A DNA stretch of 64,000 bases. Origin: Escherichia coli (GTDB lineage: Bacteria; Pseudomonadota; Gammaproteobacteria; Enterobacterales; Enterobacteriaceae). The position numbers were made by a program, and so were the translations under genes. Under the pieces are notes generated by a model, which saw only the letters and a list, made by a program, of their open reading frames with translations, ran no database searches and was not told where the DNA came from. The DNA lies in the NCBI RefSeq assembly GCF_003334355.1, contig NZ_QOWP01000010.1. One strand, 5' to 3'. Shown one piece after another: positions 43,647 to 43,877 of the stretch (position 1 is the stretch's first letter; each line of letters opens with the position of its first letter).

Positions 43647-43674
43647 ATCCTTTTCAGCCGCGTAATGGCTTGTT

Positions 43675-43690
43675 TGCAAAGTGGATGCCA
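43675..43690 (-). promoter_or_regulatory. sigma54 (-24/-12) promoter of rutABCDEFG
   Basis: Minus-strand TGGCAT-N5-TTGCA (plus-strand tttgcaaagtggatgcca) matches TGGCAC-N5-TTGCA, about 30 nt upstream of rutA ATG. Confidence 0.55.
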
Positions 43691-43754
43691 GTTTTTAAAA
43701 AAGTGAATGTTATTAATGTGTTAATGTTAAGTTATCTAAAATATCTGGTAAAAA

Positions 43755-43774
43755 GCGGACTAAACGGTCAAAAC
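43755..43774. promoter_or_regulatory. candidate RutR operator in rutA-rutR intergenic region
   Basis: Minus-strand TTGACCGTTTAGTC resembles the RutR box TTGACCAnnTGGTCAA. Confidence 0.4.
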
Positions 43775-43877
43775 AGTTGCACATAAAACATGCATCCGTG
43801 CGCGATGAGAGTGCAGAAGGTCGAGGCCGGGCGGGGGTTTTGCTATCCTGTTGCCAATCTACAAGAGGGGAGAGCGC

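Follow-up and report, generated by a model that had tools for sequence, protein, structure and literature searches.

Transcription from sigma54-dependent promoters starts from a closed holoenzyme complex that has to be remodelled, in an ATP-dependent manner, by an activator that is bound to an enhancer and acts via DNA looping. The NtrC-dependent -24/-12 promoters glnAp2 and glnHp2 share an arrangement in which two dyads lie two helical turns apart and more than 100 bp upstream. The promoter of the rut operon resembles both of them, and the likeness includes an AT-rich or IHF-like element between the dyads and the promoter; glnHp2 uses IHF. For the repressor, the nearest known operator systems are the RutR operator at carAB P1 and, grouped with it, the operators of TetR and QacR. 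Like the box in the rutA-rutR region, the carAB P1 operator is a 16-bp imperfect palindrome (TTGACCAnnTGGTCAA) that takes up one RutR dimer, which uracil releases; at this promoter (carP1) RutR leaves a footprint of 26-28 bp and bends the DNA by about 37 degrees.

The window, i.e. the whole stretch of DNA analysed here, comprises 64,000 nucleotides (64 kb) from Escherichia coli. A 901-bp query spanning the region of interest shows 100% identity with E. coli ATCC 8739; the same query has matches in 5422 of 5426 complete E. coli genomes. In the window rutA and rutR are divergent (Table 1), with an intergenic region of 288 bp. The annotation of K-12 MG1655 gives rutA 382 aa, corresponding to a start at the ATG at window position 43646, and since rutA begins there in K-12, the intergenic region under the K-12 annotation is 43647-43877.

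The control regions of K-12 and ATCC 8739, compared over 340 nt, are separated by 12 substitutions and a single 1-bp gap. The locus, the layout, the -24/-12 hexamers and the offset of the RutR box from rutR are all the same as in the K-12 rutAp region, whereas the promoter spacer reads CCACT in ATCC 8739 and CCGCT in K-12, the RutR box ends, at its outermost base on the rutA strand, in G in the former and in A in the latter, the box agrees with the consensus at 10 rather than 11 of 14 positions, and the AT-rich tract of ATCC 8739 has one additional T. None of these differences falls at a position known to matter. The motifs in the window correspond, as ATCC 8739 alleles, to two sites reported for K-12, so that the sigma54 promoter and the RutR operator of the rut (pyrimidine-breakdown) operon, to which the first-pass annotation had drawn attention, are correct but ordinary, being already known. 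Only the leader block, the correction of the rutA start codon and the possible proximal rutR promoter described below go beyond the literature searched.

Table 1. Positions of genes, control sites and start codons in the rutA-rutR region (window coordinates; distances marked with a minus sign are counted from the predicted rutA-G TSS)
Feature	Position	Strand	Sequence	Remarks
rutA	5' end at 43589	-		363 aa; RefSeq (PGAP) annotation of the strain
rutR CDS	43878..44516	+		TetR-family, uracil-sensing repressor; RefSeq annotation
Sigma54 -24/-12 element	43675..43690	-	TGGCAT-CCACT-TTGCA (TGGCATCCACTTTGCA)	GG at 43689-43688, GC at 43677-43676
Predicted rutA-G TSS	43664 (+/- 2 nt)	-		placed by -12 geometry
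Candidate IHF-like site	43711..43723	+	TATTAATGTGTTA	8/9 positions of WATCAANNNNTTR; about -52 from rutA TSS
RutR box	43756..43771		+ strand CGGACTAAACGGTCAA; rutA strand TTGACCGTTTAGTCCG	palindrome; 10/14 consensus, A4 and T13 kept
NtrC-like dyad 2	43778..43794		TGCATGTTTTATGTGCA	centred about -122; 9/12 consensus
NtrC-like dyad 1	43799..43815		TGCACTCTCATCGCGCA	centred about -143; 2 mismatches to TGCACYN5GGTGCA
Leader block, 38 nt	43626..43663	-	ACGCGGC ... GGA (43650-43648) ... UGC-AGGAC-GCA hairpin (43645-43635) ... GCCCCGU	
Upstream ATG	43644..43646	-		K-12 annotation (382 aa); unlikely as RutA start, possible start of a short uORF
Conserved rutA start ATG	43587..43589	-	MKIGVF...	363 aa; SD GAGAGG at 43596-43601

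For the comparison we took one genome per species, which gave 80 Enterobacterales rutA loci; 79 of these had usable upstream sequence, and together with the window they make up the 80 regions referred to below, in which distances were counted from the predicted TSS. The elements follow one fixed order in this set: two NtrC-like dyads, at about -143 and about -122 and with a run of T after the second, followed by the RutR box, the IHF-like site and the -24/-12 element. Since the layout is constant across 80 loci, chance is removed as an explanation, and the comparison provides independent support for the positions of the NtrC, RutR and sigma54 sites, part of which are to date listed only as predictions.

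We are highly confident that rutA-G is transcribed from a sigma54 -24/-12 promoter which is activated by phosphorylated NtrC (NtrC-P) from the upstream dyads and repressed by RutR until uracil releases the repressor. The experiments published for K-12 cover occupancy by sigma54 and NtrC, binding of RutR, its release by uracil and the box-dependent autoregulation of rutR. In mechanistic terms, sigma54 RNA polymerase would transcribe rutA-G from 43690-43675, starting near 43664, and phosphorylated NtrC sitting on the two dyads (43778-43815), about 120-145 bp upstream, would open the closed complex; because this opening needs NtrC-P, the operon would fire only under nitrogen limitation. The AT-rich stretch and the IHF-like site at -52, both between enhancer and promoter, would probably help the DNA to loop. 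When there is no uracil, a RutR dimer would occupy 43756-43771, and rutR itself would also be repressed. Given the footprint at that other operator, carP1, RutR would abut dyad 2 (43778-43794), and it would probably hinder either the assembly of the NtrC oligomer or the looping, i.e. act by anti-activation, until uracil removes it. Anti-activation seems the most economical inference for RutR at rutAp, and we likewise infer where precisely transcription starts and the NtrC dyads lie, as well as the role of IHF and the steric mode of action of RutR on this promoter.

The RutR operator and its two wings

A partial RutR palindrome had been proposed at 43755-43774, and it is indeed present: TTGACCGTTTAGTC reads from 43771 to 43758, within an interval that was slightly padded. 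The centre of the box, at 43763.5, lies about -99 from the predicted rutA TSS and -114.5 from the rutR ATG (43878). Judged by its letters alone the match is weak, a match as good being found in 4.6% of shuffled 300-bp stretches, and since only 10 of the 14 consensus positions agree, a search allowing three mismatches does not recover it. The RutR site determined by ChIP-chip in K-12, TGGACTAAACGGTCAA (11/14), has its centre at -114.5 relative to the closest start codon (Shimada 2008), so that the published site and the box in the window have an identical offset from the rutR ATG; A4 and T13, both kept in the window, are kept in every high-affinity RutR site of that study. On a rutA-rutR fragment carrying the K-12 allele, RutR was shown by EMSA to bind with a Kd of 8.6 nM and to be released by uracil with an I0.5 of about 9 nM, and four substitutions in the box abolished the uracil-sensitive autoregulation of rutR. 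The arrangement of sigma54 promoter, NtrC sites and RutR box is also shown in a figure of a 2024 paper.

Across the comparative set the box is fixed relative to the promoter in 80/80 loci, its centre falling at -98 +/- 1 in Enterobacteriaceae and at -107 in Erwiniaceae/Yersiniaceae. Many loci of the latter two families (including L033, L042, L059, L062 and L074-L079) have a second RutR-like box 19 bp closer to the promoter, centred at about -88 as against -107 for the main one; an example from Yersinia is TTGACCATTTGCTCAA (13/14). E. coli has one box only.

One may also consider that the box serves mainly, or only, the autoregulation of rutR, and that rutA-G is run essentially by NtrC and sigma54. 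The reporter used for the operator mutants was a rutR-lacZ fusion only, and in the literature searched the effect of RutR on rutA is not separated from its effect on rutR. Moreover, the box is distant from the polymerase, about 99 bp ahead of the rutA TSS, and in exponential LB cultures deletion of rutR gave no rise in rutA mRNA, nor did acetylation of RutR change it. The LB result, however, is to be expected, since NtrC is inactive in LB and derepression cannot show there. In addition, the fixed spacing places the box a few bp from the proximal dyad at every locus, and the literature searched describes RutR as a repressor of both rutA-G and rutR. We therefore regard a role restricted to rutR as rather unlikely and retain repression of both wings.

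The start codon of rutA and a conserved block in its leader

The mechanical ORF list prolongs rutA to a TTG at 43679, giving 393 aa. The first-pass annotation had argued against that start as overlapping the promoter, and rightly so: the codon is the TTG of the -12 element and lies upstream of the predicted TSS at 43664. The start that it adopted instead, ATG 43646, is probably too long as well, since only ATG 43589 is universally conserved. The latter ATG and its GAGG SD are invariant in 54 aligned long-leader sequences, the codon preceding it varies (ATG, GTG, GCG, CGT, GAG and others), and in 79/79 related loci the match to RutA runs from residue 1 at this ATG. In most genera the 19 codons added by a start at 43646 are either out of frame or broken by stops, and even within E. 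coli 15 of 5426 complete genomes carry a CGA-to-TGA haplotype in this extension that cuts the long form short. Furthermore, about a dozen species have their promoter downstream of the would-be long start; in Enterobacter hormaechei/cloacae, Buttiauxella and Yersinia no more than 30-44 nt separate the predicted TSS from the short start downstream of it, as against the -57 at which the long start would be. From the exclusive conservation of 43589, the stops and the promoter position in this dozen or so of species we take 43589 to be the most likely start of RutA, with a leader of about 75 nt rather than 18 nt.

That ATG 43646 is nevertheless the true start, yielding 382 aa behind an 18-nt leader, we hold to be improbable. 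K-12 RefSeq does annotate 382 aa, AAGGA lies directly upstream of this ATG, 44 of the 54 aligned leaders have a start codon before the motif CAG-GAW-GCA, and the 382-aa form has been crystallised (5WAN). On the other hand, the gap from AGGA to the ATG is just 1-2 nt, PGAP gives 363 aa in this very strain, and the structures 6SGG and 6SGL were made with active enzyme of 363 and 364 aa; these points add to the broken extension and the short leaders described above. The K-12 rutA start is probably over-extended, and the 363-aa form, as in PGAP genomes, should replace it.

The leader that follows from the start at 43589 contains a block, at about +2 to +39, with the pattern GCGNNGC ... GGA ... (A/G/T)TG-CAGGAWGCA-NN-GCMNCGY. 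Its conservation extends from Escherichia to Pantoea, Erwinia and Serratia, and short-leader species (some Enterobacter, Buttiauxella and Yersinia) lack the block wholly, as if by clean deletion. Two Buttiauxella loci, L036 (about 1842-2000) and L038 (about 1900-2000), have rutA leaders that are longer through an insertion with CCCCAGGAGCTTACTTGAGTAAGTGACTGGGACGAGCG, which we take to resemble an enterobacterial repeat, ERIC/IRU; in sister species of Buttiauxella the leaders measure 30-35 nt. The start codon mentioned above (ATG, GTG or TTG) stands immediately, or one codon, before CAG-GAW-GCA and is preceded by a GGA resembling an SD, 10 leaders having no start there, and its presence is presumably the reason for the choice made by the annotators of K-12. 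CAG and GCA hardly vary at their wobble bases, and one wobble G stays constant though its codon varies; the block is under constraint partly at the nucleic-acid level. It seems to have been described by nobody so far.

Several identities for this block were tried and rejected. A permissive Rfam scan (E up to 10) gave no family in 43400-44000. Across 54 leaders RNAalifold found no consensus beyond a 2-bp hairpin of -0.65 kcal/mol, and single-sequence folds of the leader are less stable than shuffles (z of +0.5 to +1.7); on these two results a riboswitch-like or stably structured leader RNA was rejected. A 7-bp outer helix drawn by hand has weak support, with a single covarying pair (G:C in 39 sequences, A:U in 11) that amounts to one clade-level change, and with two positions mismatched in about half of the sequences. 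Inspection by eye also spoke against an NtrC site (7/12 positions), a RutR site and a reverse-strand sigma54 site, in which the GG-to-GC spacing would be one base over.

Sites for CsrA/RsmA have a GGA in a short hairpin loop and a second GGA 10-63 nt away. In every fold of the leader a UGC/GCA hairpin of 3-4 bp presents AGGAW in its loop, and another GGA is found about 9 nt upstream. The decamer GCAGGAWGCM occurs 57 times in rutA leaders vs eight times elsewhere in 400 kb of loci, the latter being the chance level, and these 400 kb gave no sign of a regulon sharing it. The published CsrA CLIP-seq data for E. coli (supplement to Potts et al. 2017) have no signal at rutA, presumably because rut was not expressed in the cultures used. 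The same data have a peak inside the K-12 rutR CDS (U00096.3 1074528-1074704, about 44164-44340 of the window), which could tie the Csr system to rut regulation. A leader peptide would be expected to have an SD, a start codon and an amino-acid sequence that is kept through synonymous variation; the start codon with its GGA in 44 of 54 leaders favours this reading, and the nearly fixed wobble bases and the 10 leaders lacking a start count against it. Based on its conservation and folds, the block could represent either a site of the CsrA type or a short upstream reading frame whose initiation region is conserved, and we tentatively raise the possibility, without giving it the better odds, that the leader of about 75 nt holds an undescribed post-transcriptional control element at 43626-43663, be it a CsrA/RsmA site or a regulatory uORF. 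Such an element, if real, would add a third layer of control, by carbon status or by translation, to those by nitrogen (NtrC) and uracil (RutR), and would account for the start codon that was annotated there in K-12.

The sigma54 promoter and the sites upstream of it

The motif TGGCAT-N5-TTGCA, which had been read at 43675-43690, is found exactly there, running from 43690 to 43675 on the minus strand, and the distance of about 30 nt between motif and start is likewise accurate, as the GC of the -12 element (43677-43676) is 30 nt from ATG 43646. The element agrees with the consensus TGGCAC-N5-TTGCA at 10 of 11 bases, has its GG and GC 10 bp apart and faces rutA. The pattern TGGCAYN5TTGCW has this single match in the 64-kb window, where 0.32 matches are expected by chance, and at least one match was obtained in 26 of 100 shuffled windows, so that the motif match by itself is not significant. 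Its significance comes from its place and orientation in the intergenic region and from its presence at all loci compared: each of the 80 Enterobacterales regions has one TGGCAY-N5-TTGCW ahead of rutA, in which GG and GC never change and the spacer varies, whereas base frequencies give a rough estimate of ~0.01 per locus for the chance of such a motif in 185 bp.

In K-12, the sigma54 ChIP-seq site OS10, CTGGCATCCGCTTTGCA, maps upstream of rutA (b1012) on the minus strand; its predicted TSS is 18 bp before the K-12 rutA start, and it carries the flag 'P', for predicted in EcoCyc (Bonocora et al. 2015). The rule given in that study, by which the TSS falls 19 bp past the centre of the motif, also yields 43664. 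RpoN was further found by gSELEX to give a peak in the rutA/rutR spacer of K-12 (Shimada et al. 2021). The literature searched, from which the original descriptions of promoter and TSS were absent, contained no experimentally mapped 5' end of rutA. The sequence CCGGCATGAACAATGCG, which Bonocora et al. 2015 list as sigma54 ChIP-seq site OA02 and class as 'intergenic antisense', recurs without mismatch downstream of the operon, at 38081-38097 on the plus strand. This copy comes just after the 3' end of the minus-strand ORF 38146-39588, the last rut gene, and is directed back into the operon.

It is scarcely conceivable that the motif upstream of rutA is a chance match or a silent sigma54 site, with rutA being transcribed from elsewhere, for while its rarity in the window is modest and many sigma54 sites are intragenic with a bound holoenzyme that is typically inactive (Bonocora et al. 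2015), this one is correctly oriented and conserved at all 80 loci in the manner described, the region is occupied in vivo by both sigma54 and NtrC in K-12, and no sigma70-type promoter pattern occurs on either strand of 43550-43900.

The two NtrC-like dyads are moderate matches to the consensus, at 9 of 12 positions each. The distance of dyad 2 is 21 bp to dyad 1 and 6 bp to the RutR box. Scanned over the 64-kb window, the NtrC pattern is not enriched above chance, and neither is the IHF pattern; because the window scans are at chance level, both kinds of site carry weight only through their position across species. At dyad 1 TGCACC-N5-nGCGCA is conserved across genera, at about -142 in the comparative set, and at dyad 2, at about -121 in that set, the right half, GTGCA, with its T-run is kept in all genera compared. 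IHF sites have a WATCAANNNNTTR core, to which an upstream A/T tract is usually added. An IHF-like match of at least 8/9 on the strand running in the direction of rutR, at -52 +/- 1, is present in 55 of the 80 loci, and it reaches 9/9 in Yersinia and Serratia. No published IHF binding at the rutA promoter was found in the literature searched, in which the IHF ChIP-seq supplement was not included, and the same bases could alternatively be part of a rutR promoter.

For NtrC, ChIP-seq in K-12 gave a 94-fold peak at ycdMLKJIHG, i.e. rutA-G (Brown et al. 2014), which is the highest enrichment among those rows of their table that were retrieved. The 80-bp interval of this peak covers the promoter and not the dyads. 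At three other listed operons, glnK, glnH and ddpX, the NtrC interval likewise includes the sigma54 motif of Bonocora et al.; the placement over the promoter may be an effect of resolution or of looping.

Since the sigma70 scan of 43550-43900 was empty, the published rutR promoter, which is located upstream of the RutR box, could not be placed from the sequence. An extended -10-like element, TGCTATCCT, is present at 43841-43849 on the plus strand, 28 nt upstream of the rutR ATG and thus unlike the published location. In 67 of 75 loci the pattern TGnTAnnnT, mostly as TGCTATGCT or TGTTATGAT, was observed ahead of where rutR is estimated to start. On this basis TGCTATCCT could be a proximal rutR promoter; relative to such a promoter the dyads would fall at about -49 and -70, a placement that hints at possible repression of rutR by NtrC.

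Comparison with glnAp2, glnHp2 and carP1

With its paired dyads, an intervening AT-rich or IHF-like element and a -24/-12 promoter, rutA departs from glnAp2 and glnHp2 in one respect, namely that a site for a TetR-family repressor is wedged between enhancer and promoter. The position of this RutR site would provide an AND-type logic, in which expression calls for nitrogen limitation and uracil together. The operator itself shares its architecture with that of carP1 and differs from it in placement and effect: at carP1 the box is at -184.5 and RutR has a positive effect, through anti-repression of PepA, whereas the rutA-rutR box lies beside an enhancer and near the rutR promoter, and its effect is negative.
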